A stretch of DNA of 64,000 nucleotides from Phycisphaera mikurensis NBRC 102666 (GTDB lineage Bacteria > Planctomycetota > Phycisphaerae > Phycisphaerales > Phycisphaeraceae): NCBI RefSeq assembly GCF_000284115.1, contig NC_017080.1, positions 3,401,534 to 3,465,533 of the forward strand, written 5' to 3'. The notes under the pieces are model-generated. The model was not told the DNA's origin. It searched no databases and saw nothing but the letters and a program-made list of their open reading frames with translations. Positions 9,430 to 33,210 of this stretch are shown here, piece after piece; position 1 is the first letter of the stretch, and each line of letters opens with the position of its first letter. The translations under genes were made by a program, and so were the position numbers.

Positions 9430-9574
9430 GGAGGCTCCGCGGCACCGGGCTCGCCCCGCGTGCCTCGCGCCTTCCCGCACGCGTCCCGCTGCGCCGGGCT
9501 CTTGGGCCGAGGCCGGCACACCCGGTGCGGGCGCCCGCCGGAGCGGCCCGCGGCCCCGGTAGGCTCGCCCGGCG

Positions 9575-11543: not shown

Positions 11544-11653
11544 GGCCCGCCCGCGTCGCCGGCGATCCGACCGAGGCGCGTCGCCGGGGCGGGCGTGCCG
11601 CCGCGGACGGGACGCGGGCTACACTCCGTGCGTTCCTTTCAGTCGAGACCGAA

Positions 11654-12229
11654 ATGACCGACGATCCTGCCATCCTTGATCCCGACGGCGCCGCAGACCC
11701 GGTGATCTCGCCGGTGCAGCAGAAGCTGATCCTGCACTTCGGCGAGATGGGCGCCCGCTGGGGCGTCAACCGCACGGTGGCTCAGGTCCACGCGCTGCTC
11801 TACCTCGTGGAGCGGCCGCTGCCCGCCGACGCGATCTCGCGCGTCCTGCAGGTCGCCCGGAGCAACGTCTCGACGTCGATCCGCGAGCTGCTCGCGTGGG
11901 GCATCGTCCACCAGGTCTCGATCCTGGGCGAGCGGCGCGACCACTTCACGACGACCGCGGACGTGTGGGAGATGTTCCAGACGATCGTCGACGAGCGCAA
12001 GAAGCGGGAGCTGGACCCGACCCTGGAGCTGCTCGGCGAGCTGGTGAAGGAGGCCGAGGCTTCGGACGTCGAGAACGCCCACACCCGCCGGCGGCTCCGC
12101 GAACTGCACCAGATGCTCGGCAGCCTCGCCCGCTGGTACACGCAGGTCCGCCACCTGCCGCAGGGGGCGATCATCCGCTTCGTGAAGATGGGCTCGAAGG
12201 TGTTCACGCGGCTGGGGATCGCCTCGTGA
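11654..12229 (+). CDS. GbsR/MarR-type winged-helix transcriptional regulator
   Basis: ATG at 11654 inside track ORF 10919..12229. 'QQKLILHFGEMGARWGVNRTVAQVHALLYLVERPLPADAISRVLQVARSNVSTSIRELLAWGIV' matches the GbsR-family HTH. Confidence 0.6.
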   Translation: MTDDPAILDPDGAADPVISPVQQKLILHFGEMGARWGVNRTVAQVHALLYLVERPLPADAISRVLQVARSNVSTSIRELLAWGIVHQVSILGERRDHFTTTADVWEMFQTIVDERKKRELDPTLELLGELVKEAEASDVENAHTRRRLRELHQMLGSLARWYTQVRHLPQGAIIRFVKMGSKVFTRLGIAS

Positions 12230-16369: not shown

Positions 16370-17233
16370 ATGCGATTCCGAACCCACCGATCCCGTGGCC
16401 GCGGCGCCTCCTCCCTGCTCGGGGGGCGCGGCGGCTCGCTCAAGATGCGGCTGTTGATCGGCGGCGGGCTCGCGCTGGTGGCGCTGTTCAGCTACTGGAC
16501 CGCGTCGGACGTGAACCCGATCACCGGCGAGAGCCAGCGGATCTCGATGGAAGAGGTCGAGGAGGTGCGGCTGGGCCTCGCCAGCGCCCCGCAGATGGCG
16601 TCGGAGTTCGGTGGCGTCTCCAGCAACGCGCAGGGCCAGCGCCTGCTCGAAGAGATCGGCAGACGCCTCGTCGCGGCGATCCCGGAGGTGTACCCCCAGG
16701 CCGGCGAGATCCCCTGGGAGTTCAGCTTCACGCTGCTCGAGGACGACCAGACGGTGAACGCGTTTGCGCTGCCCGGCGGCCCGACCTTCATCACCGACGC
16801 GCTCTTCGACCGGCTCGAGACCGAGGACGAACTCGCCGGCGTCATGGGCCACGAGATCGTGCACGTGATCCAGCGGCACGGGGCTGAGCGGATGCACAAG
16901 CAGAACCTCCTGCAGGGGCTCGCCGGCGCCGCCGTCGCGGGCACGGGCGAGTACACGGCCGCCGAGGTCGTCAGCTTCGTCGGCAACTTCAAGATGATGA
17001 GCTACGGCCGCGACCAGGAGACGCAGTGCGACCTGGAGGGTCTCAAGCTGATGGCCGCCGCCGGCTACGACCCCTACGGCATGGTCCGCGTGATGGAGGT
17101 GCTGGCCGGCGCCAGCGGCGGGGCGAGCGGGCCGGAGTGGGCCAGCAGCCACCCGTCCCCGGAGGGTCGGATCGAGACGATCAAGCGGGAGATCCAGCGG
17201 CTCGGGCTGGGGGATCGAGCCGGGGTCCGGTAG
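16370..17233 (+). CDS. M48-family zinc metallopeptidase (HtpX/BepA-like) with an N-terminal TM anchor
   Basis: ATG at 16370 inside track ORF 14315..17233. TM 'LLIGGGLALVALFSYW', the zincin motif 'GHEIVHVIQRHGAE', and a downstream 'E' and 'SSHPSPEGRIE'. Confidence 0.8.
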   Translation: MRFRTHRSRGRGASSLLGGRGGSLKMRLLIGGGLALVALFSYWTASDVNPITGESQRISMEEVEEVRLGLASAPQMASEFGGVSSNAQGQRLLEEIGRRLVAAIPEVYPQAGEIPWEFSFTLLEDDQTVNAFALPGGPTFITDALFDRLETEDELAGVMGHEIVHVIQRHGAERMHKQNLLQGLAGAAVAGTGEYTAAEVVSFVGNFKMMSYGRDQETQCDLEGLKLMAAAGYDPYGMVRVMEVLAGASGGASGPEWASSHPSPEGRIETIKREIQRLGLGDRAGVR

Positions 17234-17386
17234 GGTGAGCGGATGGGCTCGTCCGCCTCGCTCCAGCAGCTCCAGGCCCGACCGGGATCCGGCGGACCGC
17301 CTGGGCTCGAGCACCTCCGCACCCCCTCCCGCGACCTCCGCCTCGGCTGAGCCGGCCGCCCGCGCCCCCGCCGCAGGCGGAACCGA

Positions 17387-18352
17387 ATGCCCGACCCCCT
17401 GGTCATCATCGGCGACGCCGCGTGCGACGCCCGCGACTCCGCGAAGCGGGCGGGTTTCGAGCCGGTGGAGCTGCTGGGCGAGGAAGCGCTGCGTCGGCTC
17501 CGCGAGACGCCCGCCGACGCGCCGGTGCTCTTCACCGGCGCGATGGAGAACCGGCCCGACGTCATGAAAGCGATCGCGGGCGAGCGTCGGCTGCTCGGCA
17601 GCCCGCCGGCCGCGGTGGCCGCCGTGCGGGACCCCGCGGCGCTCACCGACCTGCCGCCGTTCCCCGGGCTGCGCTTCCCGAAGACGAAGCCGCGGATCGG
17701 CGTTCTCGAGCGGGTCGTCCGCCGGATCGTCCCCGGCAAAATCGGCTCGCTCTACCTCGTCAAGCCGCTGGGTTCCTTCGGCGGGGAGGGCATCCGGCCG
17801 TGGAGCCGCAAGTCCCGCGTGCCGCCGGGCAGCTACCTCCAGCAGGCGGTCGAGGGCACGCCGATGTGCGCCGTGTACCAGAGCCGAGAGGGCTGGTCGG
17901 CCGTCCTCGCGGGCGTCACCGAGCAGCTCATCGGCGAGCCGAAGCTCGGTGCCGGTTGGTACGGGTGGTGCGGGAGCATCGGGCCGGTCGCGCTGTCGAC
18001 GCGCGAGCGCGACGCGCTCTCGCACCTGGGCGTCGTGCTCGCCCAGCGGCACGACCTCCGCGGCGTCTTCGGCGTCGACCTCATCCGCGACCGCGCCGGC
18101 GATTGGTGGCCGGTGGAGGTGAACCCTCGATACGTTCCCTCGGTCGACGTGCTCGAACGCGCGGCGTCGGGCCAGAGCCTGCTGGGGGGCCGCCCCGCCG
18201 TGCCCAACGGCGGCGTGCAGCACGGTCTCGCGGTCGAGCACGACGCGGATCACCCCGCCGGCCGCGGTGCACGCTTCGTCGCGAGCGGCGCCGACCGTGC
18301 CGCCTGCTTCGGTTCGCTGCTGGCCGCCGCTACACGCTCACGCGGGGCTTGA
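17387..18352 (+). CDS. ATP-grasp superfamily protein (COG2232-like predicted carboligase)
   Basis: 'GDWWPVEVNPRY' and the preceding 'GVFGVDLI' resemble the ATP-grasp C-terminal subdomain. The N-terminal pre-ATP-grasp region fits. Assignment is from motif memory only. Confidence 0.5.
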   Translation: MPDPLVIIGDAACDARDSAKRAGFEPVELLGEEALRRLRETPADAPVLFTGAMENRPDVMKAIAGERRLLGSPPAAVAAVRDPAALTDLPPFPGLRFPKTKPRIGVLERVVRRIVPGKIGSLYLVKPLGSFGGEGIRPWSRKSRVPPGSYLQQAVEGTPMCAVYQSREGWSAVLAGVTEQLIGEPKLGAGWYGWCGSIGPVALSTRERDALSHLGVVLAQRHDLRGVFGVDLIRDRAGDWWPVEVNPRYVPSVDVLERAASGQSLLGGRPAVPNGGVQHGLAVEHDADHPAGRGARFVASGADRAACFGSLLAAATRSRGA

Positions 18353-18971
18353 GCTTCTTGAACAGCGCCGGGCCGATGCCCGACACCTCTTGAAGCTCGT
18401 CCACGGAGGCGAACGGCCGCCGCGCCAGGATCGCCGTCGCCGTCGCCGGACCCAGGCCCGGCAGCGCCGCAAGCTCGCGCTCGTCCGCCTCGTTGAGGTC
18501 CACGCGTCCGGCGGCGCCTCCACCCGACGCGGCTGGGTCGGCGGCGGCCCGCGGGCCGGTGGACCGCTTCGCCGGCCGCTTCTTGGGCCGCCCCGCGGCC
18601 GCCGATTTCTTCCCCGCGGGACGCGGCGCGGCGGCCGGTTCGTCGTCCTCCTCGTCGTCGCCGAGCACCGCCACGACGGCCGCGGCGACGCCCGCCGCGA
18701 GCACGGCTCCAAGCGAAACCGCCGCCACCACCTGCAGCGTCGTCAACCCGCCGACCAGCCCGCTCTCAGAGTCGCCGGTGCCTGCGGCCGACCCGTGCCG
18801 GGGAGCGGCACCGGCGAGCGGCTCCCGCGGGAGCGGGCCGCGGGTGGAGGTGCTTTCGGCGGTGCGGCGTGGGGCCGCGCCCGCCCCAGCGCCGGCGTGG
18901 TGGTCGGTCTGCGGGATGGGCATGGCGGCCGGGTCCGCGTCGTCGTCTCGCTCGGGGAGGGGCTTGGGCAT
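18330..18971 (-). CDS. comEA: ComEA-like helix-hairpin-helix DNA-binding protein
   Basis: The C-terminus 'VDLNEADERELAALPGLGPATATAILARRPFASVDELQEVSGIGPALFKKL' is a tandem HhH ComEA motif. A TM helix sits upstream. Start taken at 'MPKPLPE' (cat 18969-18971). Confidence 0.65.
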   Translation of the reverse strand: MPKPLPERDDDADPAAMPIPQTDHHAGAGAGAAPRRTAESTSTRGPLPREPLAGAAPRHGSAAGTGDSESGLVGGLTTLQVVAAVSLGAVLAAGVAAAVVAVLGDDEEDDEPAAAPRPAGKKSAAAGRPKKRPAKRSTGPRAAADPAASGGGAAGRVDLNEADERELAALPGLGPATATAILARRPFASVDELQEVSGIGPALFKKLKPRVSV

Positions 18972-19147
18972 GCCGGACGCTACGCGCCGGAAGGATGCCA
19001 GGCGCGGCGGCCGCGGAGGCGACGCGAGCCCCGCCGCACCCCCTCCACCACGCGTGGCAGGCGGACGGCCCGGGATCGGCGCCCGGAGATCCACCCAATT
19101 CTGCGGCTTCGCTCACCCTTTGCTCACGCAACGCTCATACTCGATGG

Positions 19148-19909
19148 ATGGCTCCAGCTTCCTCCCCACCCGCGGCCGCCGCGACGGCCACCGATCCCGC
19201 GGCGGCGGCGAGCCGGCTGCGCACCGTGCTGCTGCGCGTCTGCTGGATCGCCATCCCCGTGCTCGCGCTGATGAACGTGCTCGACCGGGTGCTCGACGAC
19301 CGCCTGCCGATCGCCACGCTGAACATGGTGATGGGCAAGTTCCACATGGACTTCGACCTCTCGATCCCCGCGTGGTTCACGGTCCAGCTCATCTTCCTCT
19401 CCGCCGCGGTCACCGGCGGCCTGGCCTGGCGGGCGTGGCGGCGCGGCGGCCCCGACGCGTGGCGGTACACGCTCCTCGCGGGGGTGCTGTTGTTTCTCTC
19501 CGCGGACGAGTCCGCGGGGCTGCACGAGCTGCTCGGAACCGCCATGCGGGAGCGGCTGAATCTCTCGGGGCTGCTCTTCTTCGGGTGGATGATCCCGGTG
19601 GGGCTTGCCGCCGCGGGCGTGGGCGTCTGCATGATCCCGCTGCTCAAGCGGCTGCCGGCGGCCACCCGCAACACGATGATCCTCGGCGGCGGCGTCTACA
19701 TCCTGGGAGCCGCCGGCCTGGAGATGCTCGCCGGCCCCTTCGCCGAGGCCGGCAACGGCCAGGGCATCGAGTTCTTCACGCTGATGACCGTCGAGGAGTG
19801 CCTCGAGATGGCGGGCATGCTCATCTACCTGCAGGCCGCCAGCGCCTTCCTGCTCGGGCAGGTGGAGGTGCCGCTGCGCGAGCCCGACGCCGCGGTCGCG
19901 ATCGCCTGA
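19148..19909 (+). CDS. Integral membrane protein (at least 6 predicted TM helices), function unknown
   Basis: ATG at 19148 inside track ORF 18869..19909. There are repeated hydrophobic segments; no motif recognised. Confidence 0.4.
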   Translation: MAPASSPPAAAATATDPAAAASRLRTVLLRVCWIAIPVLALMNVLDRVLDDRLPIATLNMVMGKFHMDFDLSIPAWFTVQLIFLSAAVTGGLAWRAWRRGGPDAWRYTLLAGVLLFLSADESAGLHELLGTAMRERLNLSGLLFFGWMIPVGLAAAGVGVCMIPLLKRLPAATRNTMILGGGVYILGAAGLEMLAGPFAEAGNGQGIEFFTLMTVEECLEMAGMLIYLQAASAFLLGQVEVPLREPDAAVAIA

Positions 19910-20001
19910 TCCCAAGCCCGCGGCCGGGGGCACCGCAGCCGCCGCCCCCGCGGATCGCCGCCCCGGCCGGGCTGGAAGGCACGCGGTCCGCGGCGCGTCG
20001 C

Positions 20002-20805
20002 TCAAACGATCGAGTCGATGATCCCGCCCTCGCAGCGGAGCGTCGCGCCGGTGGTGGCCGAAGCGAGCGGCGACACGGCGAAGGCGACCAGGTCCGCGAC
20101 CTCCTCCGGTGTCGCGAAGCGGGCGATCAGCGAGCCCGGCCGCTGCTCCTCGAAGAACCGCGTCTTCATCTCGTCCACGCTCAAGCCCTTCTCCGCCGCG
20201 ACCTGCTCCACGAAGGCCGCGACGCCCTCGGTCCAGGTCGGCCCCGGCAGCACGCTGTTCACCGTGATCCCGCTGCCCCCAAGCTCCTTCGCGAGCCCGC
20301 GTGACAGCGCCAGCTGGGCGCTCTTGGTCACCCCGTAGTGGATCATCTCCTCGGGCGTGCACACGCCCGACTCGCTGGAGATGAAGACCACGCGGCCCCA
20401 GCCGGCGTGCTTCATCCGCGGCAGCAGCGCCCGCGTCATCCGAACCCCCGACATCACGTTCAGATCGAAGATCCCCGCCCAATCTTCGTCCGTGATCTTC
20501 TCGAACGACTTCGGCGCGTACGCGCCCGCGTTGTTCACCAGCACGTCCACCATCGCGACGTGCTCGGCCGCCGCCGCGAGGTCCAGCGCCCCGCGCTCCG
20601 CCGAGAGGTCGGCCGCGACGCCGTGCACGTCGGCGCCGGCGACCTCCCCGCGCAGCTTCTCGACCGCCTCCGCAACCGAGCCCTCGCTCCGCCCGTTGAC
20701 CGTGACGGTCGCGCCTTCCCTCAGCAGCCGCTCCGCGATCGCGAAGCCGATGCCCTTGGTCGATCCGGTCACCAGCGCGTGCTTGCCGTTGAGTTTCAGG
20801 TCCAT
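20002..20805 (-). CDS. SDR-family oxidoreductase
   Basis: 'ALVTGSTKGIGFAIA' (TGxxxGIG), 'NNAG' and the 'YGVTK' catalytic YxxxK. Start at 'MDLKLNGKH' (cat 20803-20805) inside track ORF 20002..22011. Confidence 0.85.
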   Translation of the reverse strand: MDLKLNGKHALVTGSTKGIGFAIAERLLREGATVTVNGRSEGSVAEAVEKLRGEVAGADVHGVAADLSAERGALDLAAAAEHVAMVDVLVNNAGAYAPKSFEKITDEDWAGIFDLNVMSGVRMTRALLPRMKHAGWGRVVFISSESGVCTPEEMIHYGVTKSAQLALSRGLAKELGGSGITVNSVLPGPTWTEGVAAFVEQVAAEKGLSVDEMKTRFFEEQRPGSLIARFATPEEVADLVAFAVSPLASATTGATLRCEGGIIDSIV

Positions 20806-20837
20806 GGCCGACGGTAGCGCCGGCCCGGCCCCGCCGA

Positions 20838-21854
20838 TCACCTCACCCGGATCACGACCTTGCCCACGTGCTTCTGCTGCTGGAAGTAGCTGTAGGCCTC
20901 GACCGCCTCCTCGAAGGCGAACGTCCGGTCGATCTTCGGCTTGATCCGATTCGCCTCCACCGCCTGTGCCAGCCCCTCGAACTGCGCCACCGAGCCGACG
21001 TAGATGCCGCGGATCGTCTGCGCATTCAGCAGCGCCGGCAGCACCGAGGGCTGCTCGTCGGGATTCGTGAGCAGCCCGATCAGAGAGATCGTCCCGCCCA
21101 CGCGCACGCTCTTCAGCGACCGCTCCAGCGTGCCCGCTCCGCCCACCTCCAGCACGTTGTCGACGCCGCGGCCGCCGGTGATCCGCAGCACCTCCTCGTG
21201 CCAGTCCGGCGTATTGCCGTAGTTGATGACGTGGTCCGCCCCGAGCCCGCGGGCCAGGCCCAGCTTCTCGTCGCTGGAGCTGGTGACGATCGTCGTCGCC
21301 CCCGCGGCGTGCGCGAGCTGCAGCCCGAACACGCTCACCCCGCCCGTCCCCAGCAGCAGCACCGTGTCGCCGGGCTTCAGCCCCGCCGAGGTGAGCGCGT
21401 TCCACGCCGTCACCCCCGCGCACGGCAGCGTCGCAGCCTGCTCGTGGCTGAGGTGCGCCGGCACCCGCACCAGCGCCTCCTCGCTCGCCACGATTCGCTC
21501 CGCCAGCACCCCCTCCAGCCCGCCCCCCAGCGACGACCGCGCCCCCGCCTCGGTCAGCCCGCCCGCGGGATGCTTCGCCAGGAAGTTGGGCATGACGCGG
21601 TCCCCCTCGCTCCACCTCCGGACGGCGGAGCCCACCTCGACGACCTCCCCCGAGGCGTCCGACAGCGGCACCACCGGCGAGGTGTCGTTCCGCGGGTACC
21701 CGCCCCGCGTCACGATCAGGTCCCGGAAGTTCAGTGAGCAAGCGTGTACCTCCACCCGCACCTCGTGCGGCAGCAGCTCCCCCGGCTCCTCCACGTCCAC
21801 CCGGGAGATGGCCTCGGGAACGCCGGCGTCTGACACAATGCGGTAAGCCTTCAT
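20838..21854 (-). CDS. Zinc-independent MDR-family NAD(P)H quinone oxidoreductase / alcohol dehydrogenase
   Basis: 'MKAYRIVS...' start (cat 21852-21854). 'LLLGTGGVSVFGLQLA' is a GxGxxG cofactor motif. The MDR fold is recognisable throughout. Confidence 0.8.
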   Translation of the reverse strand: MKAYRIVSDAGVPEAISRVDVEEPGELLPHEVRVEVHACSLNFRDLIVTRGGYPRNDTSPVVPLSDASGEVVEVGSAVRRWSEGDRVMPNFLAKHPAGGLTEAGARSSLGGGLEGVLAERIVASEEALVRVPAHLSHEQAATLPCAGVTAWNALTSAGLKPGDTVLLLGTGGVSVFGLQLAHAAGATTIVTSSSDEKLGLARGLGADHVINYGNTPDWHEEVLRITGGRGVDNVLEVGGAGTLERSLKSVRVGGTISLIGLLTNPDEQPSVLPALLNAQTIRGIYVGSVAQFEGLAQAVEANRIKPKIDRTFAFEEAVEAYSYFQQQKHVGKVVIRVR

Positions 21855-21922
21855 GATCTTTTCCTTCGGGAGCGAGAGAAAGTGAGATAGTTCGATTCCG
21901 ATCGAACAGTACCGAGCCACGC

Positions 21923-22228
21923 ATGCCGCCGCAACCGTCCGAGCCCGACGCCGCCGACCTCGACCTGCCCCGGGTCCTCCGCGCGCTCGCCGATCCGGTC
22001 CGACTCGACATCGTCCGCTACGCGCACGCCCACCCCGGCGCGCCCTGCTCCACCATCCTCGCCGACGTTCCCAAGAGCACCGCCAGCCACCACTGGAGGG
22101 TCCTCCGCGAGGCCGGCCTGCTCCACCAGGAACCCGCCGGCCGCCAGAAGCTCAACCACCTGCGGAAGGCCGAAGTCGATACCGCGTACCCCGGCCTCCT
22201 CGACGCCGTGCTCGCCGGGCGTGAGTAG
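21923..22228 (+). CDS. ArsR/SmtB-family HTH transcriptional regulator, divergent from the MDR oxidoreductase
   Basis: 'LRALADPVRLDIVRYAH...STASHHWRVLREAGLL' is a canonical ArsR HTH. Length is 101 aa. Confidence 0.75.
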   Translation: MPPQPSEPDAADLDLPRVLRALADPVRLDIVRYAHAHPGAPCSTILADVPKSTASHHWRVLREAGLLHQEPAGRQKLNHLRKAEVDTAYPGLLDAVLAGRE

Positions 22229-22254
22229 CGGGCTTGTTGGCGTTCCTCTCGCTG

Positions 22255-22645
22255 GCCTCGGGCCGGTTGCTGACGCGGCCCCAGCGGGAGTCGCGTTCTT
22301 CCGGCGTGCTGCCGGGGCCGAGGGATTGGCCGTCCCGGCGGGCGTTGGCATTGGCGAAGGTCCCGATCCAGCTCTGCGTGGTCCCGAACTGCTCCTTCAT
22401 CACGCAGAGGAAGGGGTCGGGGATCTTGTCGACGACGCGGATCTCCTGCGGGAGCGAAGCGCCGGGCGCTTCGCCGCCCGGGGCTCGCCCCCCCCGGGAG
22501 CGTTGGCTCCCGTCCAGCCTCGCAGCCGCCGCCTCCAACGCCGCCACGGTCCCGGCGACATCGACCTCCAGGTTCACCGGTGCCGGTGGCAAGCGGCGGA
22601 TGCGCCCGAGCCTGCCGGAGTGGATCCACCTCGCGAGGTCCACGG
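22255..22645 (-). pseudogene. Decayed paralogous copy of the 3' end (C-terminal domain) of the giant ATPase gene
   Basis: DNA at 22262-22635 aligns with 25045-25400 at roughly 75-80% identity (for example 'gatccagctctgc..tgctccttcatcacg.agaggaagg.gtcggggatcttgt.gacgacgcggatctcctgcggg'). The encoded 'RLPPAPVNLEVDVAG.VAALEAAAA.LDGSQRSRG...PQEIRVV.KIPD.FL.VMKEQF...QSWI...NAR.DGQ' matches the giant protein's C-terminus. The corresponding stop is lost and the ORF reads into the 3' end of arsR. Confidence 0.45.
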
Positions 22646-22647
22646 TT

Positions 22648-23637
22648 CTAACGCCGCGTCGCCCGCAGGATCCACCAGCCGCGGCGGTGGTCGGCGCCGG
22701 TGTAGAAGAGCACGCCCGCACCGCCTTCGCCCGTGGCGAAGCTGATCGAGGGGGCGATGATCTCGGAACGTTCCAGCGGGCCGTGCTGGACGAGCAGGGG
22801 TGCGGGGTCGGGCGTCCAGGGGCCGAAGGGGTGGTCGGCGGTCGCGCGGAAGATGGCCTCGCGGTCGCCGTGGGCGTCCGTGCGCACGGCGACGAAGCCG
22901 CCGCCGGGCCGCGGGGTGACCTGGCCCTCCATCCCGATCGGGCAGTCGACCTCGGCGGGCTCGCTCCAGGTGGTGCCGCCGTCGGCGGAGGTCGCGCCGA
23001 GGACGCGGACGCGCGTCACGCGATCGGGCGGGGCGTCCCAGGCGAGGAAGACCAGGTGCAGCGTTCCCTCGTGCTCCACGACGCTCGGGGAGGTCACGCA
23101 GTGGACGAACGCGCCGGCGAGGTGCCCGCGCTCCACGACCGGGCCGGGTCGCTCGCGGTACGGGCCCTCCGCGGAGGCGGCCTCGGCGACGTGCAGCTGC
23201 GCCTCGTAGCTCGCTTCGTCCGCGTAGGCGATGTACCACAGCCGGTGACGGCCCCCGGCGGTGGCGCGGTGGAAGCCGGTCTCGCGGCTGATCGCCGGGG
23301 CTCCGGCGGGCCGGAGGATCTCGATCGTCCGGCCCGGCGCCCATCCGCCGGCCGCCCCGCGGGTGGCGAGCTTGAGCGCAGGCCGGTCGTCGTGGTCACC
23401 GGTGTAGAGCATGCGAACGACGCCGCGACCGTCCGCGAACACGTGCGGATCGCTCGCCACCTCGTACCCGCCGCCGGGCAGCGGGTCGCGCAGGATCGCA
23501 CCGGCGGGATCGCGGTGCCAAGCCCCGACCGCCGCCGCGGGGGCCGCCTCGCCGCAGCCGGGCATGCAGAGGCAGGCGGCGGCGGCGACGGCCACCCAGA
23601 GCCTCGCCGGCGATCGCTTCGGGATGCTGCGGATCAT
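22648..23637 (-). CDS. Secreted or lipoprotein glycoside-hydrolase-like five-bladed beta-propeller protein (GH43/GH32-like)
   Basis: Signal peptide with 'CMPGC'. Repeated Asp/Glu-containing blades ('VASDPHVF', 'WYIAYADE', 'HLVFLAWD', 'GGTTWSEP'). The family call is tentative. Confidence 0.45.
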   Translation of the reverse strand: MIRSIPKRSPARLWVAVAAAACLCMPGCGEAAPAAAVGAWHRDPAGAILRDPLPGGGYEVASDPHVFADGRGVVRMLYTGDHDDRPALKLATRGAAGGWAPGRTIEILRPAGAPAISRETGFHRATAGGRHRLWYIAYADEASYEAQLHVAEAASAEGPYRERPGPVVERGHLAGAFVHCVTSPSVVEHEGTLHLVFLAWDAPPDRVTRVRVLGATSADGGTTWSEPAEVDCPIGMEGQVTPRPGGGFVAVRTDAHGDREAIFRATADHPFGPWTPDPAPLLVQHGPLERSEIIAPSISFATGEGGAGVLFYTGADHRRGWWILRATRR

Positions 23638-23754
23638 CGCGTGCTCCTCGCAAAAGGCTGAGGATCCCGATCGCGTGGTCCGTTCTCGGGCGACACGCCG
23701 CTTCGCGCCGGCTGCCGGCGGTGCGCCCCGGGGTCCGCCGGACCCGTCCGGGCT

Positions 23755-24225
23755 TCAGATCGGATCGGCCGAGGCATAGAGCACCGCGCTCACCCGTCGC
23801 ACCCGATCCAGCTGAGCCGGCGGCAGCGTGATCATCAGGCTGGCGAGCTGGGTCTGCTCGCCCGCGGGGATGCCGTCGTCCCCGAAGCTCGACTGGCTCG
23901 ACGCGCCGATGAGTTCGCCCGCCGCGTCGAAGACCGCGACGTGCATGCTCACGTGGCGGGCTCCGTCGGCCTCGTTGAACAGCTGCGCCGACACCATCAG
24001 CTTCTCGCGGCCGAAGAATTCGCCGCGGTAGAAGGACGTCTCGAGGCGGACCGACGCCGCTTCGAGCTGGAACGCCGGCGCCCCTTCCGGCGGCCCGAAC
24101 TCGCTCGCGGGCAGCGCCTCGAAGCCGACCGAGGCGGCCTCGGAAGCCGGTCCCGCGAACGCGGTCGCCGAGGCCAGCCACACCGCCGCGAACGCGGCCA
24201 CGATCCGGCAGGGAAGGGATCTCAT
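23755..24225 (-). CDS. Secreted hypothetical protein
   Basis: Clear signal peptide 'IVAAFAAVWLASATAFAGPAS'. Composition is protein-like. Confidence 0.4.
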   Translation of the reverse strand: MRSLPCRIVAAFAAVWLASATAFAGPASEAASVGFEALPASEFGPPEGAPAFQLEAASVRLETSFYRGEFFGREKLMVSAQLFNEADGARHVSMHVAVFDAAGELIGASSQSSFGDDGIPAGEQTQLASLMITLPPAQLDRVRRVSAVLYASADPI

Positions 24226-24452
24226 CCCCCGAAGCTACCGCAACACGGCCGCCGGGGCCCCGCCCCAAGATCTCGGGCCTTCCCCAGGATCCTCCGCCCT
24301 TGCACCGGAGCCCGCCTTGGCGTCGCGGCCGGGCCGTGGAGGAGCTCCGGCCCCTTCCCGCGAGACGAGGCCGCGGCTGGGGTCTAGTGTCGACGGGACG
24401 TCGCCGGAGGAGGCGGCGTCATCCTCGGGTCGAGAAACGAAGGAGTGGTGAA

Positions 24453-24995
24453 ATGCGGATCCCAACGATGGGAGCGCTTGTGATTGGTGCCGCGGGCGCA
24501 AGCGGCGTCGCGGCTGCGCAGAGCGTGGAGGGGTCGATCGTGAGCGGCGGAACCACCGTCACCTCGGGCACGGCAACGCCGGGGCCGGGGGTGGAGTTCC
24601 GCGGCGAGGTCTTCCGCAACGAGATCTTCGGTGTCAACAGCGCCGACGCCTTCATCGACGTGGACGACGACGGGCTGGGCGCGAGCTTCGGGATCGAGCG
24701 GACGGCCGGCTCCGCCGGGGTGTCGTCCGAAACGCCGGTGACGTTCACGCTCTCTGGCGCCGCGGTCGCGGGCATCGCCTCGGTGGACCTGCTCGACGAG
24801 AGCTTCGGCCAGGACCGGCCCGTCGAGAGCAGCTTCCGCGGCGGCACGCTGACGGTGACGCTGACCAACGGCTTCTTCGTGGGCTCCTCCGACCCCAGCC
24901 GCGCGGCGGACTTCGGCTTCACGCCGATCCCCGAGCCCGCCGCGGCGGGGGTTCTCGCCCTCGGCAGCGCGGCTCTGCTCCGCCGGCGAGGCTGA
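24453..24995 (+). CDS. PEP-CTERM sorting-domain protein (exosortase substrate)
   Basis: ATG at 24453 is preceded by an AAGGAG Shine-Dalgarno at 24441-24446. There is a signal peptide, and the C-terminus 'TPIPEPAAAGVLALGSAALLRRRG' is a textbook PEP motif plus TM plus basic tail. Confidence 0.7.
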   Translation: MRIPTMGALVIGAAGASGVAAAQSVEGSIVSGGTTVTSGTATPGPGVEFRGEVFRNEIFGVNSADAFIDVDDDGLGASFGIERTAGSAGVSSETPVTFTLSGAAVAGIASVDLLDESFGQDRPVESSFRGGTLTVTLTNGFFVGSSDPSRAADFGFTPIPEPAAAGVLALGSAALLRRRG

Positions 24996-25013
24996 AACGC
25001 CTGTCACCAGGCC

Positions 25014-28000
25014 TCAGCTCCGGTCGCTGTTCTCGAGCTTGTCGATGACGCGGCCCCAGCGGTGGGTGAGCTTGTCGAGGGTCTGCTGCAGCTCGGTGAG
25101 CTGGCCGTCCTGGCGGGCGTTGACCTGGGCGAAGGGCTCGATCCAGCTCTGCATGATCTCGAATTGCTCCTTCATCACGTAGAGGAAGGTGTCGGGGATC
25201 TTGTTGACGACGCGGATCTCCTGCGGGTGCGTATCGCCGGTGGCTCGCTCCCCCCGGGAGCGTTGACTCCCGTCCAGCTTCGCAGCCGCCGCCTCCAACG
25301 CCGCCACGATCCCGGCGACGTCGACCTCCAGGTTCACCGGCGCCGGTGGCAAGCGGCCGTCGCGGACGGCCGAGGCGATCCCGCCGATCGCGGCGTTCAC
25401 CTTCGAAAGCTCGGCGATGGCCGCGGCGGTCGCGTCGCCGGACGAAACGGCGGCGGCGACGGAGGCCGCGGAGCCACTGATCTTGCTCAGCTCGGCGATG
25501 GCGGCGGCGGTCGCGTCGCCGGACGAAACGGCGGCGGCGACGGAGGCCGCGGAGCCACTGATCTTGCTCAGCTCGGCGATGGCGGCGGCGGTCGCGTCGC
25601 CGCCGAGTGCTCTGACGCTGTTGTTCCGCACGAAGGCGGACTTGATCTCCACCCACCGCTCTTCCTGCTCGGGTGTGAGCCCGAAGACCAGCTCGCGGAA
25701 CTTGAGCAGGTTGGCCTCGGCGCCGGTGGTGAGCGTCTGCGCATCCTGCTCGTAGGCGGAGACGATCAGCTCCCGCAGCTCCGCGTCGTTCATGACGGCG
25801 GAGACCTTCTCGGCGATGCGGTTCATGTTCCGGTAGCTGCCTTGCAGCAGGAACGGCGGCTCGGTGCGGTAGTCGTCGTCCTGACCGGCGGAGGCGATGT
25901 ACGCGAGGTTGACCTTCAGGATCACATCGCGGACGCGGGCCAGCTTCCGCACGACCTCGACCATCTCCGCCAGCTCGTCGGGCGGGAAGCTCCCGTCGAA
26001 CTCGACTCCGTCGGGCGAGGCGCCGCCGGCGAGGCGGATGACGCGGTGAACGTCGTCGCGGGTTGCCGTGGCCAGCGGGTTCAGCGCCGGGTTGCTGGTG
26101 AGCGCGTTCTCGAGGTAGCTCATCTCGAAGGCGTCGCCGTGCGCCCCGATGATGTCGCCGAGGTTGTACGTGTCGGCCCGGTTGCTGAGCATGTCCGGGA
26201 TGCGGAAGGCCTCGCCCGACTCCGTGTACGGGTTGCCGGCCATGACCACGGCGACCCGCCGGCCGCGGAAGTCGTAGGCCTTGGGCTTGCCGTGGCGGAC
26301 GCCCTCGATCCGGCGCTGGGCGTCGCAGAGGCTGATGAACTTCTGCAGGAACGCGGGGTTCGTGTGCTGGATGTCGTCGACGTAGACCATCACGTTGTCG
26401 CCCATCTCAAAGCCGAGGTTCAGCTTCTGCAGCTCCTCCTTCGCCGCGGCGTTGGTGGCCTCGGCGGGGTCCAGCGAAGTGACGCCGTGCCCGAGCGCCG
26501 GGCCGTTGATCTTGAGGAACACCATGCCCAGCCGGGCGCACACGTATTCCATCAGCGTCGTCTTGCCGTAGCCGGGCGGCGAGATGAGCAGCAGCAGGCC
26601 CATGCGGTCGGTCCGGGTGTCGGCGCCGGCGGTGCCGATCTGCTTGGCGAGGTTGTCGCCGATCAGCGGCAGGAAGACCTCGTCGAGCAGCCGATTCCGG
26701 ACGAAGCTGGTGAGCACCTTCGGCTTGAAGGTGTCGAGCCGCATCTGGTCGCGGGCTTCTTTAAGCACCTCGTGCTTGGTGTCGCTGAACGCCTCGAACG
26801 CGGCGACGCCGGCGGTGGCGAAGCGCCGCATGCGCGGGACCCAGACCGGGTAATCGATCGTCAGCTCGCCGCCGCGGATGCGGGGGTGGTCGCCGACGAG
26901 GTTCTCCACGCTGCGCGTTGGCGAGGCGTCGAGGACGCGGAGGTTGTTCTCACCTCCGGCGAGGCGCAGCGCAACTTCCGGGTCACGATCCCAGGTGCGG
27001 GCGAGGCGGAAGCGCTCCACGGCATCCGGAGCCGCTTCGAGCGCGGCGGCGAGCGGCTCGCCCGCCGTCTCGCGCAGCGAGGCGGCGGACGCAACCGCCC
27101 CGCCGCTCGCCGCGAAGCGGACCTCGCCGCCGATCCCCGCGAGGCCGACCTCGGCGGCGAGCACGGCAACGGCCTCGTCGGCTTGCTCGGCCGTGAACCC
27201 CCCGACCTCCTCCGCGAATCCGCGGACCGTGGCCTCCAGCGCCGGGAAACCTCCACGGTCCGCGGCATCCGCCTCTGCCTCTGTGCCTCCTCTGTGCCTC
27301 TGTGCCTCCGTGTCCTCTGCGTTCCGCGAAGCGGGTCCCGGAGACGCGGCCGCGGCGGCGTTGGCGAGGCGGAGGTGCCACAGCTTCCGCTCATCGTCGG
27401 TGGCGCCGGCCTCCCACCAAAGCTGCGCCAGCACCCGAGCGGGGGCGGAGAAGCGGAGCGTGCCCAGCGTGTCCCGCAGCTCGACCAGGGCCGACAGGAT
27501 CTTCGCCGCGTCGGCGTCGTGGACGCCCTTCACGTAGCCCTCGGCGTAGCGCGGCGCCATGTACGCCTGCACCGCCTCGACGGAGGTGCCCGCGCCCGCT
27601 TCGAGCATGAGGTACGCGAGGTACTCCGCCCGGTACACGCTCGCGGACTCGCTGACCAGCGCCTGGTCCCACCGCGCAGACGCTCCACGCAGGCGGGGAT
27701 CCGCAACCTCCTCGAAGAACTGCGTGCCGGTGACGTGCAGCACCGGCGTGTCGTCGCGGTGCACGAGCGTCAGGTCGATCGGCTGCGTGCTGATCGCGAA
27801 GGTGTGCCGGCCGAAGCGGATCGTGTCGCGGCCGCCGCCCTGCAGGTCGAGCCGATCCTTGAGCCGCCGGACGGCGTCCTCCTTCGCGGCCTTCAGCCCC
27901 GCGCGCAGGTCACCCTCGCGTACCCGGTCGTCCATCCCGCCCAGCTCGTCCGCGAGGTCGCGGAGCTTCTCGACCATCAGGTCGCCGGCGAAGTAGGCGT

Positions 28001-30416
28001 TGATCTCCTCGACCGCGTCCATCGACTCGACCCGCGAACGGACCGTCCCGAGGATCCGTTCCGCCGCCCGGGCGAGCGTGTCGGCCCGCTGGTTCTTCTG
28101 CTCGACGAGCGCGAGCCTTCGCTGCTCGAAGGCCGCGAGCACCTCCTCGCGCTTCTCGATGAGCACCCCGACGAAGTCGTCGAAGCCGCCGAAGCTCGCT
28201 TCGAGTTCCTCGACCTGGACCATCAGCTTCGCGAGCGAGGCGTCGGCCTTCTCGGGCGTGTCGGCCAGCTCCAGCGCGTTGGTGATGCTCTGCTCCAGCA
28301 GCTTCAGCCGGGAGGCGAACTCGGCGGCGCCTTCCTGTTGGCCCAGCTCCTGCCGCCGGGCCCGCAGCCGGGAGCGGGTGGCGTTCAACCGGGAGAAGAC
28401 CTCGGAGATCGCCTCGACCACCGCGGTCCGCTGCGTCGCGTCGTCGATGTCGAGGTTGTTGACGACGTCGATCAGCAGCTCCAGCTCGCCGGCTGCCTCG
28501 GCGACTTCGTCGCCGAGGGCTTCGGCCTCGGCCGCGGTGGCGAGGGCACCGACGGCTTCGTCCTGCGCCCGGACCCGATCGCGGTACGGGTCCAGCGCGT
28601 CGTCGCGGAGCAGGAACGAGAGCGTCTTCTGCGAGACGGCCTCGGTCTGATCGACGACCTCGGCCTCCATCGCCTCGACCTCGCCCGGGTCGACATGCCG
28701 CAGCTCGCGGAGGCCGATGACCTCGCCGCGGACCGCCCGCAGCGCCGCGAGCGTCTCGACGTACCCGCCGACCTCGTCGGGGTTCGCCACGCGGGCCGAG
28801 GCGATCGCGGCGTCGACCTCCGACCGCACCTCCGCGACGGCCCGGGCCGTCTCGCGTCGCTGCCGGGTCAGCTTCTCGTACTCCCCCACCGCCGCGGCCG
28901 CCGCGTCGCGGATGCCCGCCAGCGGCTCGGCCACCCGCGCGGCGGCATCTTCTCCTAGCCAGAAGTAGGTGTCCAGCAGGTCACCGGCCTGCTTGACGAG
29001 GTCGGCGTACAGCGATTGGTAGAGGTCCTCCCGCGTCGCGAGCCCGAGCACCTGCCGGGCCTCGGCCATGGCCCGGACCACGTCGCGGTTGCCGATCCGC
29101 TTGAGCGGGTTGTCGTCCCCCCCGCCGGCCACCGCGGGCGCGACGTGGTCGGGCCCCACGAACGGAGTCGTCCAGTTCTGCACCGCGTGGTGCTTCTGCG
29201 GCTCGGCGCCCTCCGGAGACTTGAACAGCAGCAGCCGCCCGTCGTCGCGGAAGGCGTAGCCGTTGCACACGATCGGCGCGGCGACTTGGCGGGCGATCAG
29301 GTTGTACGCGAACAGCACGTAGACGCCCCGCTCCCGCTGGTAGAAGACGTAGAGGAAGTCCTCTCCATTCGGAGACACGACCCTGCGGTCGAAGGTGAGC
29401 CCGCCCGGGGCCGCCACCAGGTCCGCCACCGCCGCGAACACCTGCTTCTCGCCGGTGGCGAGGTACACGCCGTCGGCGGTCATCACGCCCTGGTCCTCGG
29501 GCAGCAGCACCGCGGCAGTGCCCAGGCCGTCGGCCCGGACCGCGGTGCCGAGCTTCGTGTTGAAGACGAAGTGCCGCCACGCCTTCTCGCGGTACGGGCG
29601 GATGCGCAGCAGGACCAGCGGGCCCTCGACCACGTACAGCACGTCGGCGTCGTCGAGGCCCTGGTCCGGCTCGTCCACCGGCTCGGCCAGGATGCCCTCG
29701 CCCGTCTCGGTGTTGTTCTCGACCTTGATGGTCAGGTCGCCCCCGGTGGTCTCGACGAAGACCAGGTCCTCGATCGAGTAGTGCGGGAACCGCCCGCCGG
29801 TCTGCATGTCGCGGGTCACGCGTTTCCACGCGAAGTCGTGCTGGGGCGGGTAGGTGACCTCGTGGTCGGATCGATTGCCGAGGTAGGCCAGACCTTCTCC
29901 TTCTTGTCCTGACTCGCCGGGGGCGAATGCCCACTTGAACGCCTTGAAGTCGTCGACGGTCCGGCCGGTCCGGAACTTCATGTAGACGTGGGGCCCGCGG
30001 CGGAAGAACTTGGTGAAGCGTGCGTCCTTGTAGAAGCGCATCAGGTCGGTGAAGTCCTTCCTGAAGCTCTCGTTCTCCAGCAGCCCGAGGCCGTCGTCGT
30101 GGAAGACCGCTTCGTCGTCCTGCCGGTAGCAGGCGAAGACGTCGCCGAGGTCGACGGTGCTCTTGAGGCCGAAGTGCACGTTGAAGCCCATCAGCACGCG
30201 GTCGCCGACGGCCACGATGTCCCGCGGCACGCAGGCGTGCGCCGTGGTCACCCGCGAGGTGCCGGCCAGCGCGAGCTCGACGCTGCCGAACGCCTCCTTC
30301 CGCTTCGCGTTGAGCGCCTCGAGCCGCTCCCGCAGCTCTCTCGCCTGCGCATCGAGCCGCCCGCGGAGCACGTCGTAGGAAGACCGGTCGAGCTGTTCGG
30401 GTGGGGCGTCAGGCAT
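25014..30416 (-). CDS. Giant (1800 aa) AAA+ ATPase with a coiled-coil region, C-terminal tandem repeats and a conserved C-terminal domain; family unknown
   Basis: Protein-like composition across the whole ORF. Walker A 'LLLISPPGYGKTTL', Walker B 'VMVYVDDIQ' and the 'VAVVMAGNPYTESGEAFRIPDMLSNRADTYNLG' sensor region sit at about residues 1215-1400 (AAA_5/MoxR-like). A long E/A/R-rich helical middle fits a coiled coil. Three 26-aa repeats '..AAIAELSKISGSAASVAAAVSSGDAT' lie at residues about 1585-1660. The gene is immediately downstream of the flotillin and NfeD genes, in the same orientation. Confidence 0.75.
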   Translation of the reverse strand: MPDAPPEQLDRSSYDVLRGRLDAQARELRERLEALNAKRKEAFGSVELALAGTSRVTTAHACVPRDIVAVGDRVLMGFNVHFGLKSTVDLGDVFACYRQDDEAVFHDDGLGLLENESFRKDFTDLMRFYKDARFTKFFRRGPHVYMKFRTGRTVDDFKAFKWAFAPGESGQEGEGLAYLGNRSDHEVTYPPQHDFAWKRVTRDMQTGGRFPHYSIEDLVFVETTGGDLTIKVENNTETGEGILAEPVDEPDQGLDDADVLYVVEGPLVLLRIRPYREKAWRHFVFNTKLGTAVRADGLGTAAVLLPEDQGVMTADGVYLATGEKQVFAAVADLVAAPGGLTFDRRVVSPNGEDFLYVFYQRERGVYVLFAYNLIARQVAAPIVCNGYAFRDDGRLLLFKSPEGAEPQKHHAVQNWTTPFVGPDHVAPAVAGGGDDNPLKRIGNRDVVRAMAEARQVLGLATREDLYQSLYADLVKQAGDLLDTYFWLGEDAAARVAEPLAGIRDAAAAAVGEYEKLTRQRRETARAVAEVRSEVDAAIASARVANPDEVGGYVETLAALRAVRGEVIGLRELRHVDPGEVEAMEAEVVDQTEAVSQKTLSFLLRDDALDPYRDRVRAQDEAVGALATAAEAEALGDEVAEAAGELELLIDVVNNLDIDDATQRTAVVEAISEVFSRLNATRSRLRARRQELGQQEGAAEFASRLKLLEQSITNALELADTPEKADASLAKLMVQVEELEASFGGFDDFVGVLIEKREEVLAAFEQRRLALVEQKNQRADTLARAAERILGTVRSRVESMDAVEEINAYFAGDLMVEKLRDLADELGGMDDRVREGDLRAGLKAAKEDAVRRLKDRLDLQGGGRDTIRFGRHTFAISTQPIDLTLVHRDDTPVLHVTGTQFFEEVADPRLRGASARWDQALVSESASVYRAEYLAYLMLEAGAGTSVEAVQAYMAPRYAEGYVKGVHDADAAKILSALVELRDTLGTLRFSAPARVLAQLWWEAGATDDERKLWHLRLANAAAAASPGPASRNAEDTEAQRHRGGTEAEADAADRGGFPALEATVRGFAEEVGGFTAEQADEAVAVLAAEVGLAGIGGEVRFAASGGAVASAASLRETAGEPLAAALEAAPDAVERFRLARTWDRDPEVALRLAGGENNLRVLDASPTRSVENLVGDHPRIRGGELTIDYPVWVPRMRRFATAGVAAFEAFSDTKHEVLKEARDQMRLDTFKPKVLTSFVRNRLLDEVFLPLIGDNLAKQIGTAGADTRTDRMGLLLLISPPGYGKTTLMEYVCARLGMVFLKINGPALGHGVTSLDPAEATNAAAKEELQKLNLGFEMGDNVMVYVDDIQHTNPAFLQKFISLCDAQRRIEGVRHGKPKAYDFRGRRVAVVMAGNPYTESGEAFRIPDMLSNRADTYNLGDIIGAHGDAFEMSYLENALTSNPALNPLATATRDDVHRVIRLAGGASPDGVEFDGSFPPDELAEMVEVVRKLARVRDVILKVNLAYIASAGQDDDYRTEPPFLLQGSYRNMNRIAEKVSAVMNDAELRELIVSAYEQDAQTLTTGAEANLLKFRELVFGLTPEQEERWVEIKSAFVRNNSVRALGGDATAAAIAELSKISGSAASVAAAVSSGDATAAAIAELSKISGSAASVAAAVSSGDATAAAIAELSKVNAAIGGIASAVRDGRLPPAPVNLEVDVAGIVAALEAAAAKLDGSQRSRGERATGDTHPQEIRVVNKIPDTFLYVMKEQFEIMQSWIEPFAQVNARQDGQLTELQQTLDKLTHRWGRVIDKLENSDRS
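25400..25640. repeat. Roughly 78-bp direct tandem repeats (about 3 copies) inside the giant ATPase gene; they encode 26-aa protein repeats
   Basis: 'gctcggcgatggc.gcggcggtcgcgtcgccggacgaaacggcggcggcgacggaggccgcggagccactgatcttgctca' recurs at about 25411, 25491 and 25572. Confidence 0.7.
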
Positions 30417-31001: not shown

Positions 31002-32999
31002 TCACCCCCCGATCTCGCTGAGGCGTTTGTCGCTCGCGCCCGTGGCTTTGGCGAGGCCGAGCAGGCCTTTCAGCTCGCCGAGCAGGCCCTCGTCGTCGGA
31101 AGAGGCCATGGCTTTGCCGAGCAGCGCGGCGATGGTGAGGTTCTTCACGTCCTCCGAGGACACGCCGGTCTGCTGGACGAGCTCCTTGAGCCGGCCGCCG
31201 AACTCGCCGTTGGACAAAGCTCCCCCCGGGCCGTCGCCGGAGAGCTGAGACGCGATGCGCTCGACGTGCTTGGAGTTGTCGACGAAGCGGTCGACCTGCT
31301 TGCCGCGGGTGATCGCGTTGATGAGGTTGTCGAAGAAGACGCCGTCGCCGCCGACGATGTCGATGTTCGCGGACTTGAGCGCCTCGGCCAGCACCCTCGC
31401 CTGCTCGGCGGCGATGTCCTTCTGGATGCCAATCTCGGCGAGCTCGACCTGGAGCCTCCGCTCCAGCTCCAGCTTGAACTCCTCGTGCTCCTTGCCCACG
31501 CCGTCGAGCTTCCGCATCGCCTCGGCCTTGGCCGCGACGGCCTCGGCCTCGGCGTTGCCCTTGGCCCGCATCACCTGCGCCTCGGCGGCGCCGTACTTGT
31601 CGAGCGCCCCGGCCTGGGCGTCCATCACCTCGGCTTCGGCCAGGCCCGCGGCGGCCTTCTCGGCCTGCAGCGCCTCGGCCATCTTCATCTTGCCCAGCGC
31701 CTCCTGCTCGGCCGCCTCGCGGTGGGCGCCCGCCTCGATGAGGATTTCCTCGGCCTGGAACTTCGCGGCCAGCTGCCCGGCCTCGGCCTTCTGCACTTCC
31801 TGCACCTTGGCCTCCTCCGCCTTGGCCTGGGCCGCGGTGACGCTGACGGTCTTCGCCCGCTCGGCGGCGGCGACCTCTTCGGTGTCCTTGATCTTCTCCT
31901 GCTCCTCGACGACCGCCCGCTCGACGACGACCCGCTCGCGGATGACGTCCTGGATCTGGCGGCGCTGCTCCTCGAGCGCCTTCTCCTTCTCGATCTCCGC
32001 CAGCTCCACCACGCGCTCGCGCTCGGTCGCTTCGAGCCCCTTCTCCCGCAGCACGCGCTCGCTCTCGACGGCGTCGGTCTTCTCCTTGGCCTTGGCCGCG
32101 ACCAGGATCTGGCGGAGCTTGTTCTGCTCGGCGATGCCCAGCTCCTCCTCGGTGCTGATGCGGGCCCGCTCGCTCTTGAAGCGTTCCTCCTCCTCGACCT
32201 TCTGGGCCTCGGCCTGCTCACGGGCCTTGACGCTGGCGATCTCGCGGGCCTGGCGGTCTTCCGCCTCCTCCTGCTGACGCTCGAGCTCGAGGATCGCCTC
32301 GCGGGCCTCGACGTCCTGCTTCTTGATCGTCTTCTCCTTCTCGCGGGCGATGCTGTTGGACAGCACCGCCTCTCTCGCGGTCAGGTCGGTGATCTTCTTG
32401 ATCCCCTCGGCGTCGAGGATGTTGCTGGGATCGAGCTGCTTGAGGTCGGTCTGCTCGAGGTAGTCGATCGCCGCGTCGTCGAGCACGTAGCCGTTCAGGT
32501 CCGTGCCGATGTGGGCGAGGATCTCGTTCTTGAACTTCTCCCGCTCGGTGTAGAGCTCGGTGAAGTCGAAGCTCTTGCCGACGGTCTTGAGCGCCTCGGA
32601 GAACTTGGCGTCGAAGAGGTCCACCAGCGCCTGGATGTCGCTGGCCCGGCGGCAGCCGATGCTCTGGGCGACCTGCAGCACGTCGGCGCTGGCGTTGTTC
32701 ACGCGGACGAAGAAGGCGACCTTGATGTCGGCCCGGACGTTGTCCTTGCAGTTGAGCCCCTCGGAGCCGTGGCGGTAGATCTCGATCCGCTTCACCGAGA
32801 TGTCCATGAACTCGGCGCGGTGCATGATCGGGATCACCGGGATCCCCGAGAAGGTGACCTTCGTGGGACCCACGCCGGTCCGCACCAGCGCGGTGCCCTG
32901 CTCGACCTTCACGAAGAACTTCGCGAGCATCGTGAGGAAGCCCACGGCGATGACCAGGAGCCCGACGACGACGACGGCGATGACGATGGCGGTTTGCAT
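31002..32999 (-). CDS. Flotillin-family SPFH-domain protein (YqiK/FloT-like), 665 aa
   Basis: N-terminal TM 'IVIAVVVVGLLVIAVGFL', then an SPFH domain, a very long E/A/K/R-rich coiled coil, and a C-terminal flotillin-like tail. Confidence 0.85.
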   Translation of the reverse strand: MQTAIVIAVVVVGLLVIAVGFLTMLAKFFVKVEQGTALVRTGVGPTKVTFSGIPVIPIMHRAEFMDISVKRIEIYRHGSEGLNCKDNVRADIKVAFFVRVNNASADVLQVAQSIGCRRASDIQALVDLFDAKFSEALKTVGKSFDFTELYTEREKFKNEILAHIGTDLNGYVLDDAAIDYLEQTDLKQLDPSNILDAEGIKKITDLTAREAVLSNSIAREKEKTIKKQDVEAREAILELERQQEEAEDRQAREIASVKAREQAEAQKVEEEERFKSERARISTEEELGIAEQNKLRQILVAAKAKEKTDAVESERVLREKGLEATERERVVELAEIEKEKALEEQRRQIQDVIRERVVVERAVVEEQEKIKDTEEVAAAERAKTVSVTAAQAKAEEAKVQEVQKAEAGQLAAKFQAEEILIEAGAHREAAEQEALGKMKMAEALQAEKAAAGLAEAEVMDAQAGALDKYGAAEAQVMRAKGNAEAEAVAAKAEAMRKLDGVGKEHEEFKLELERRLQVELAEIGIQKDIAAEQARVLAEALKSANIDIVGGDGVFFDNLINAITRGKQVDRFVDNSKHVERIASQLSGDGPGGALSNGEFGGRLKELVQQTGVSSEDVKNLTIAALLGKAMASSDDEGLLGELKGLLGLAKATGASDKRLSEIGG

Positions 33000-33185: not shown

Positions 33186-33210
33186 TGACTCGGATCGACT
33201 CACCACGACC

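Follow-up and report, generated by a model that had tools for sequence, protein, structure and literature searches.

The DNA at 22242..22597 (minus strand) of the window, by which we mean the whole 64,000-nt stretch of the Phycisphaera mikurensis genome analysed here, is a non-functional, decaying pseudogene fragment of the 3′ end of a giant ATPase gene. This conclusion is based on its dN/dS of 1.1, the excess of changes on the orphan side, the loss of the family profile in the last helix, and the lack of any gene call. The orphan copy consists of parts of different ages, and its layout recurs in two other lineages, where mobile-type genes lie between the copies. The most credible history is probably that the giant gene received a DNA insertion at its 3′ end, that the copy stranded beyond the insert drifted, and that gene conversion between the two copies came later.

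The giant ATPase gene and its orphan copy

The giant gene (25014..30416, minus strand) encodes a protein of 1800 aa, in which Pfam recognises DUF3686 at residues 27-485 (E 7e-179), DUF7902 at residues 606-690, and an AAA/AAA_5 P-loop region at residues 1275-1398. The closest relative found is an ENA metagenome contig (L091, ena:ERZ25039505:contig_14989) that shares 84.6% nucleotide identity over 7.5 kb, and in which the giant gene (4974-10162) is broken by frameshifts typical of long-read assemblies. Compared with L091 over residues 50-1014, the P. mikurensis gene shows dS 0.48, dN 0.058, and dN/dS 0.12, and it is clearly functional and under purifying selection. PADLOC and NCBIfam returned nothing useful for this gene, including no toxin matches, and none of the papers in the literature library searched mentions DUF3686.

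The orphan lies 2.4 kb downstream of the giant gene in the same orientation and corresponds to its last 113 codons, covering the last 341 coding bases, as delimited by blastn, BLASTP, and a three-way alignment with L091. It contains a linker, the conserved C-terminal domain of ~70 aa, and a tail, and has neither a start nor a stop at the equivalent place. The parent segment, identified by blastn and BLASTP, is the intact 3′ coding end of the giant gene (25017..25357, minus strand). Within the window, blastn aligned 22249-22597 with 25024-25357 at 81% identity (350 columns, E 1e-93), and BLASTP gave 64% peptide identity over 118 aa (E 7e-44). The diverged downstream copy in the same orientation, as described in the original prediction, therefore exists far beyond chance. 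A blastn search against the whole window found no third copy across the 64 kb, and the orphan and its parent form the sole dispersed repeat of the region.

The three-way alignment, guided by L091, places the 3′ limit of the orphan at the last sense codon (22242/25017), and the homology ends on the 5′ side at 22597/25357. The limits first proposed (22262-22635 and 25045-25400) were slightly off, with a 5′ edge ~40 nt too generous and a 3′ edge slightly short. Aligned codon for codon, the tail ends in ...EASERN in the orphan, in ...EASEKN and a stop in L091, and in ...ENSDRS and a stop in the giant gene; the L091 tail (..RWGRVIERLEASEKN) is the intact form of the orphan tail. An 8-nt deletion in the orphan, suggested by the pairwise alignment, disappeared once L091 was added, and we regard it as an alignment artefact because the orphan (...EASERN, followed directly by A) matches L091 codon for codon.

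As the orphan has no stop at the equivalent place, the open frame that carries it (22152..22721, minus strand) continues to 22152, which is 77 nt within a convergent arsR gene, in agreement with the original prediction; at its other side, the frame overlaps the end of the upstream gene. The arsR gene (21923..22228, plus strand) encodes an ArsR-family regulator (Pfam HTH_20, E 3.8e-13), and 14 nt separate its stop from the last homologous codon of the orphan.

A near-perfect tandem repeat of 81 nt (27 aa) in 2.5 copies was detected by TRF at 25397..25602 (minus strand), inside the giant gene and just 5′ of the duplicated segment. The array is outside the copy, and its absence from the orphan had been noticed correctly from the sequence alone. 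One P. mikurensis strain is sequenced, and its three assemblies are identical at the locus; JACHEL010000009.1 (GCA_014207395.1) shows zero mismatches to 16648-25601 of the window. This draft has a 96-N scaffold gap exactly at the tandem repeat (L083:3942-4037), and a Logan contig breaks inside the repeat, which explains the 195-aa P. mikurensis protein listed as “partial” by NCBI (P0001), 100% identical to the end of the giant gene. A differing repeat number in the draft assembly was considered and rejected, as the extra 96 nt of L083 are the Ns of the scaffold gap.

Other observations concern the surroundings of the giant gene. At 24990-25020, where the giant gene has its stop codon, lies a stem-loop (GCUGAGGCCUGG UGAC AGGCGUUUCAGC) that overlaps this codon and has no counterpart in the orphan. 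It is a candidate terminator; its wider region folds no better than shuffled sequences. On the other side, two genes in the same orientation as the giant gene (31002-32999 and 33200-33865, minus strand) lie upstream of it, and the pair recurs at L090:607-3313 and L091:1400-4255, with sizes of ~665-670 aa and 211-221 aa. No Pfam family was matched by the pair at E<=0.01, and the smaller gene carries a faint YqiJ_N mark in L091. The pair may be operon partners of the giant ATPase.

Neutral decay and mosaic ages of the orphan

Relative to the giant-gene copy, the orphan shows a dN/dS of ~1.1 (dS 0.19, dN 0.21; Nei-Gojobori), and codon position 2 carries more of the differences (27/61) than either of the other positions. 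The GC content of second codon positions has changed from 0.40 to 0.58 in the orphan, as drift predicts in a genome of 73% GC. A relative-rate count at positions with an outgroup consensus assigned 13 changes to the orphan lineage vs. 2 to the giant-gene copy (p=0.007), with full ranges of 13-17 and 2-5 amino-acid changes, respectively. Using a profile of 57 orthologous C-termini from which P. mikurensis was left out, the giant-gene copy scored 85 bits over positions 3-72, whereas the match of the orphan (31 bits) is confined to positions 3-46 and no longer includes its last helix. Residues invariant in ~60 orthologues are gone from the orphan (EP to GT, Y to C, and IM to TT), among them the E-P, the tyrosine in FLYVMKEQF, and the I/L-M pair. 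A structure model of the C-terminal segment predicted three helices with low confidence (pLDDT 60), and Gly/Pro substitutions of the orphan would be located throughout the last of these predicted helices.

No gene is called at the orphan in the NCBI or Logan annotations, and eight start variants of its frame had no match among 15 billion proteins. Purifying selection and gene annotation, by which a functional small ORF is recognised, are both lacking in the orphan. An orphan-specific insertion of 15 nt creates a perfect 10+10 palindrome at 22454-22474 (GCGAAGCGCC g GGCGCTTCGC), which looks like an inverted-duplication or template-switch lesion. A terminator or structured-RNA role of this palindrome or of the diverged 3′ patch was considered and rejected, as neither contains a terminator-like site or an Rfam match and the fold z-scores range from -0.3 to -2.3. 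In its neutral substitutions, stop loss, palindromic insertion, and patchwork of young and old parts, the orphan is like ordinary gene-fragment pseudogenes with ectopic gene conversion. Once its origin is set aside, an ordinary converted gene-fragment pseudogene is what it is, with no essential difference.

The divergence between the copies is uneven and heavier at the 3′ end, as originally predicted: the first (upstream) 256 aligned nt differ by 9.0%, as opposed to 42% for the final 78 nt, and maximal chi-square places the break at 22326 (a statistic reached by 0/5000 permutations, p<0.0002). The old tail of the orphan (22242..22326, minus strand) has ancestral states common to L091, e.g., EASE.N, and the young linker and core (22327..22597, minus strand) constitute a putative gene-conversion tract. 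Changes were polarised with L091 as the outgroup (84.6% nucleotide identity, dS 0.48). The linker has 3 orphan-specific changes, 4 gene-specific changes, and 35 on the outgroup or stem; the corresponding numbers are 11, 2, and 11 for the conserved core, and 20, 10, and 4 for the tail. Giant-specific changes thus stand to outgroup or stem changes as 6:46 in the linker and core and as 10:4 in the tail (Fisher p=2.5e-5). Of the sites in the tail, 20/79 carry orphan-specific changes, a proportion close to the per-lineage neutral divergence since the L091 split (~0.24). Judging from this divergence, the two copies of the tail would have separated at about the time when P. mikurensis and L091 did, and those of the upstream 256 nt at roughly a fifth to a third of the tail's age.

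Selection on the orphan peptide cannot explain this mosaic of ages, because the upstream part has a dN/dS of 0.8 and has likewise lost invariant residues. The simplest account would be that the two copies underwent gene conversion in the past. According to the original prediction, the idea of a silent cassette would be refuted if the end of the giant gene showed no exchange with downstream copies; the mosaic divergence, best explained by gene conversion, points to exchange instead. Exchange between the orphan and the giant gene has probably happened, with nothing suggesting a switch role.

It is worth adding that a 42-nt patch of the orphan (22286-22327) is near random relative to the gene copy, and that 22304-22321 is an exact 18-nt match to the complement of 20238-20255, in the coding strand of a short-chain dehydrogenase gene 2 kb from the orphan. 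This inverted match could have come from templated repair, or could be fortuitous between GC-rich codons. The templated origin was not retained, as the match has no extension on either side and is possibly due to chance.

Bracketed DNA and recurrence of the layout

The direct repeats (25017-25357 and 22242-22597, in the same orientation) bracket 2.4 kb of DNA (22598..25013) with three genes, according to the ORFs and the gene calls in GCA_014207395.1. The gene next to the orphan (22648-23637, minus strand, 329 aa) is weakly GH43-like and a lipoprotein candidate, followed by a gene for a secreted-looking protein (23755-24225, minus strand, 156 aa) and by a gene with a PEP-CTERM-like tail (24540-24995, plus strand) that is convergent to the giant gene. 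Searches of this 2.4 kb with Pfam, NCBIfam, and PHROGs found no integrase, excisionase, transposase, nuclease, or phage gene, and its composition is not foreign.

Among the relatives, the C-terminal domain forms one conserved family in all of the 70-odd that have it. It is single-copy per locus across 68 genome loci and 5 metagenome loci, with two independent exceptions, L041 and L085. A first metagenome scan with a single-protein query had given no match, and synteny of the downstream genes was found in none of 80 genome loci, because these relatives are too distant. Between P. mikurensis and L091, synteny stops exactly at the giant-gene stop; L091 has one copy and a different downstream gene, and its contig ends 1.7 kb after the stop.

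In one exception, a Pirellulaceae MAG (CAZXYZ010000119.1, L041:11266-12473), a second copy of the final 138 nt of the gene lies 1.07 kb downstream (88% identity). The DNA between the copies contains an HNH endonuclease ORF (11441-12154, minus strand; Pfam E 2e-10, many PHROG HNH families) and also an 82-aa ORF. The other exception is represented by Phycisphaera-like metagenome contigs from two samples (L085:10007-11563 and L090:8636-10198), in which the last 207 nt are repeated with 85.6% identity. In L085, the 1.1 kb between the copies carries a gene homologous to phrog_2620 “excisionase and transcriptional regulator” (E 6e-30) and contains a phage-family small ORF. No integrase was found between the copies in P. 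mikurensis, L085, or L041. The homology of the repeats stops with the last sense codon in P. mikurensis, with the stop codon itself in L085, and two bases past it (stop+2) in L041, so that it ends within 0-2 nt of the stop codon in all of them.

Several sources call the L085 orphan as a gene; it is intact, with an ATG, and its dN/dS vs. its parent is 0.27, with mostly synonymous differences. The gene-attached copy of L085 is the more derived one, with 11-13 changes vs. 4-8 in the orphan when three outgroups are used (counts not individually significant). This polarity is the opposite of in-place decay, and would be expected if the attached end had come with the insert. An apparent closer relationship of the L085 orphan to L004 than to its own gene turned out to reflect alignments of unequal length; when the same 52 residues are compared, its own gene is closest. 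In L086, a sister of L085 (97.6% identical), the insert genes are shared, the sequences diverge 33 nt before the orphan, and no orphan is present in the available 2.4 kb. Beyond that point, L086 carries Mrr and HsdR genes in place of the HsdM of L085; therefore, a strain-variable defence region begins right after the giant gene.

Origin of the orphan, alternative readings, and significance

We consider the following history, taken as a whole, reasonably likely. DNA that now amounts to 2.4 kb with three genes would have been inserted at the 3′ end of the giant gene, which would have kept or received a complete coding end, while a second end, extending to the last codon, would have been left beyond the insert. 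The stranded copy would have drifted without selection, and gene conversion with the live gene would later have re-homogenised the upstream 256 nt of the orphan and not its last ~80 nt. For P. mikurensis itself, we infer the insertion mechanism from the layout. An insertion-associated origin is preferred over plain duplication because two independent lineages share the layout around mobile-type genes and because the homology ends at the stop. There are also findings that speak against this history: the orphan lacks the native stop codon expected of a simply displaced end, the P. mikurensis insert has no mobile genes by Pfam, NCBIfam, or PHROGs and no foreign composition, and L086 has no orphan in its available 2.4 kb. 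Neither an empty site nor excision was observed, in a comparison that covered one P. mikurensis strain and the 1.7 kb of L091 beyond the gene.

Integrative elements duplicate the 3′ end of their target gene as attL/attR, as at tRNA genes. At the P. mikurensis locus, direct repeats of a 3′ end likewise bracket DNA, and their homology reaches no further than the end of the target gene. The arrangement is thus similar to icd/icdC around prophage e14 in E. coli K-12, in which a partial 3′-end copy lies in the same orientation beyond inserted DNA, the homology stops at the coding end, the gene is intact, and the stranded copy is a pseudogene. The similarity extends to the ability of the copies to recombine, which at icd/icdC yields a chimeric but functional icd (PMC13626634). 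Unlike at e14, however, the P. mikurensis 2.4 kb is devoid of integrase, excisionase, and phage genes, and its copies are only 81% identical, with mosaic ages; e14-type features in the bracketed DNA, namely the excisionase-like gene of L085 and the HNH nuclease gene of L041, are present in the relatives only.

A plain in-situ duplication of the 3′ end, dispersed or segmental, without mobile DNA and followed by neutral decay, appears unlikely to us, although the overall dS of 0.19 is close to the dN of 0.21, as would follow from copies that started out identical, and the insert shows neither a mobile hallmark nor an odd composition. Such a duplication would leave unexplained why the copy ends at the last codon and why the layout recurred twice around HNH and excisionase-like genes, and a second event would still be needed for the mosaic ages. 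Of the original suggestion of a segmental-duplication remnant or pseudogene, the pseudogene holds, in view of the dN/dS of 1.1, the profile loss, and the lack of a gene call, but plain duplication is less likely, as the origin looks insertion-associated. The least credible reading is the other one raised at the outset, in which the orphan is kept as a silent cassette, a spare C-terminus that can replace the end of the expressed gene by recombination, in the manner of Rhs/CdiA loci. Orphans of rhs-CT/cdiA-CT are displaced fragments without translation start signals that are able to recombine with the main gene (PMC3967940), and the P. mikurensis orphan resembles them as a downstream fragment in the same orientation that has no start signals and looks like a displaced piece of the full-length gene. 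In addition, the upstream 256 nt at 91% identity would be usable for recombination, a signature of past exchange is present, and the full-length gene of the sister lineage L091 ends in the orphan-type tail (..EASE.N). This tail resemblance, however, is retained ancestry, and the features that define such cassettes fail. The giant protein contains only DUF3686, DUF7902, and AAA in Pfam, with no secretion domain and no toxin match in PADLOC or NCBIfam, so it is not a toxin with a variable C-terminal domain. The C-terminal domain is a single conserved family without diversity of sequence types, and the orphan belongs to that same family (31 vs. 85 bits) instead of being an intact, different type. 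Neither copy is followed by an immunity-like gene; the convergent PEP-CTERM-like gene follows the gene copy and the convergent arsR follows the orphan. The orphan itself is degenerate, with family-invariant residues lost, the last helix broken, and a dN/dS of ~1. Its origin may nevertheless resemble that of Rhs/CdiA orphans, given that those are displaced fragments without start signals and able to recombine. Left behind, as we suppose, by the insertion of foreign DNA at the end of the gene, the orphan is most likely an ordinary genomic scar rather than a switchable cassette.

It is also highly improbable that the orphan is expressed as a small stand-alone protein, starting from the GTG at 22643 five bases past the stop of the upstream gene, that modulates the giant ATPase. 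An open frame of 163-189 codons is present, and the intact L085 orphan, with its ATG, its dN/dS of 0.27, and its gene calls, would be in line with such a protein; long open frames, however, occur on every strand in DNA of 73% GC, and the P. mikurensis orphan is without purifying selection, has lost invariant residues, and is called by no annotation. Moreover, the stand-alone homologues that were looked up in context (P0002, P0003, P0008-P0010, P0012, and P0014; P0004-P0007 and P0013, with contigs of ~1 kb or without a contig on record, were left out) are all explained otherwise. P0002 (124 aa) comes from a chimeric contig, L081, with a GC jump from 0.32 to 0.65 just upstream. Frameshifts in long-read contigs account for P0003, P0009, and P0014, each a piece of a split giant gene; P0010 and P0012 are fragments at contig ends, and the remaining case is the L085 orphan again and provides no new independent orphan. 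At the chimeric junction (L081:5000-5400, ena:ERZ6863655:c_000002969484), a Bacteroidota-like half is fused to the 3′ end of a Planctomycetota giant gene.

The orphan alone matters little, being a pseudogene fragment that annotators rightly skip. It is of modest use as an example, with an estimate of age, of how a live gene and its dead fragment undergo partial gene conversion in a genome of 73% GC, and the locus carries a warning about short “stand-alone” homologues in public collections, which, where looked up, are a chimera, contig-end fragments, frameshift pieces, or the L085 orphan. One could speculate that the stranded 3′ ends in the three Planctomycetota lineages act as conversion donors that reshuffle the last ~40 residues of the giant ATPase, or as free C-terminal peptides that interfere with it; we give this idea very little credence, but if true, the end of the gene would be a maintained site of variation and not a passive scar. 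By analogy, the best reading of the orphan layout would be a fresh example of the known geometry of insertion at a 3′ end, e.g., icd/icdC. Its other modest use is that it marks the end of a giant AAA+ gene (DUF3686/DUF7902), widespread and uncharacterised, as a recurrent insertion point and synteny break in Planctomycetota, which aids in delimiting islands and in interpreting MAGs.
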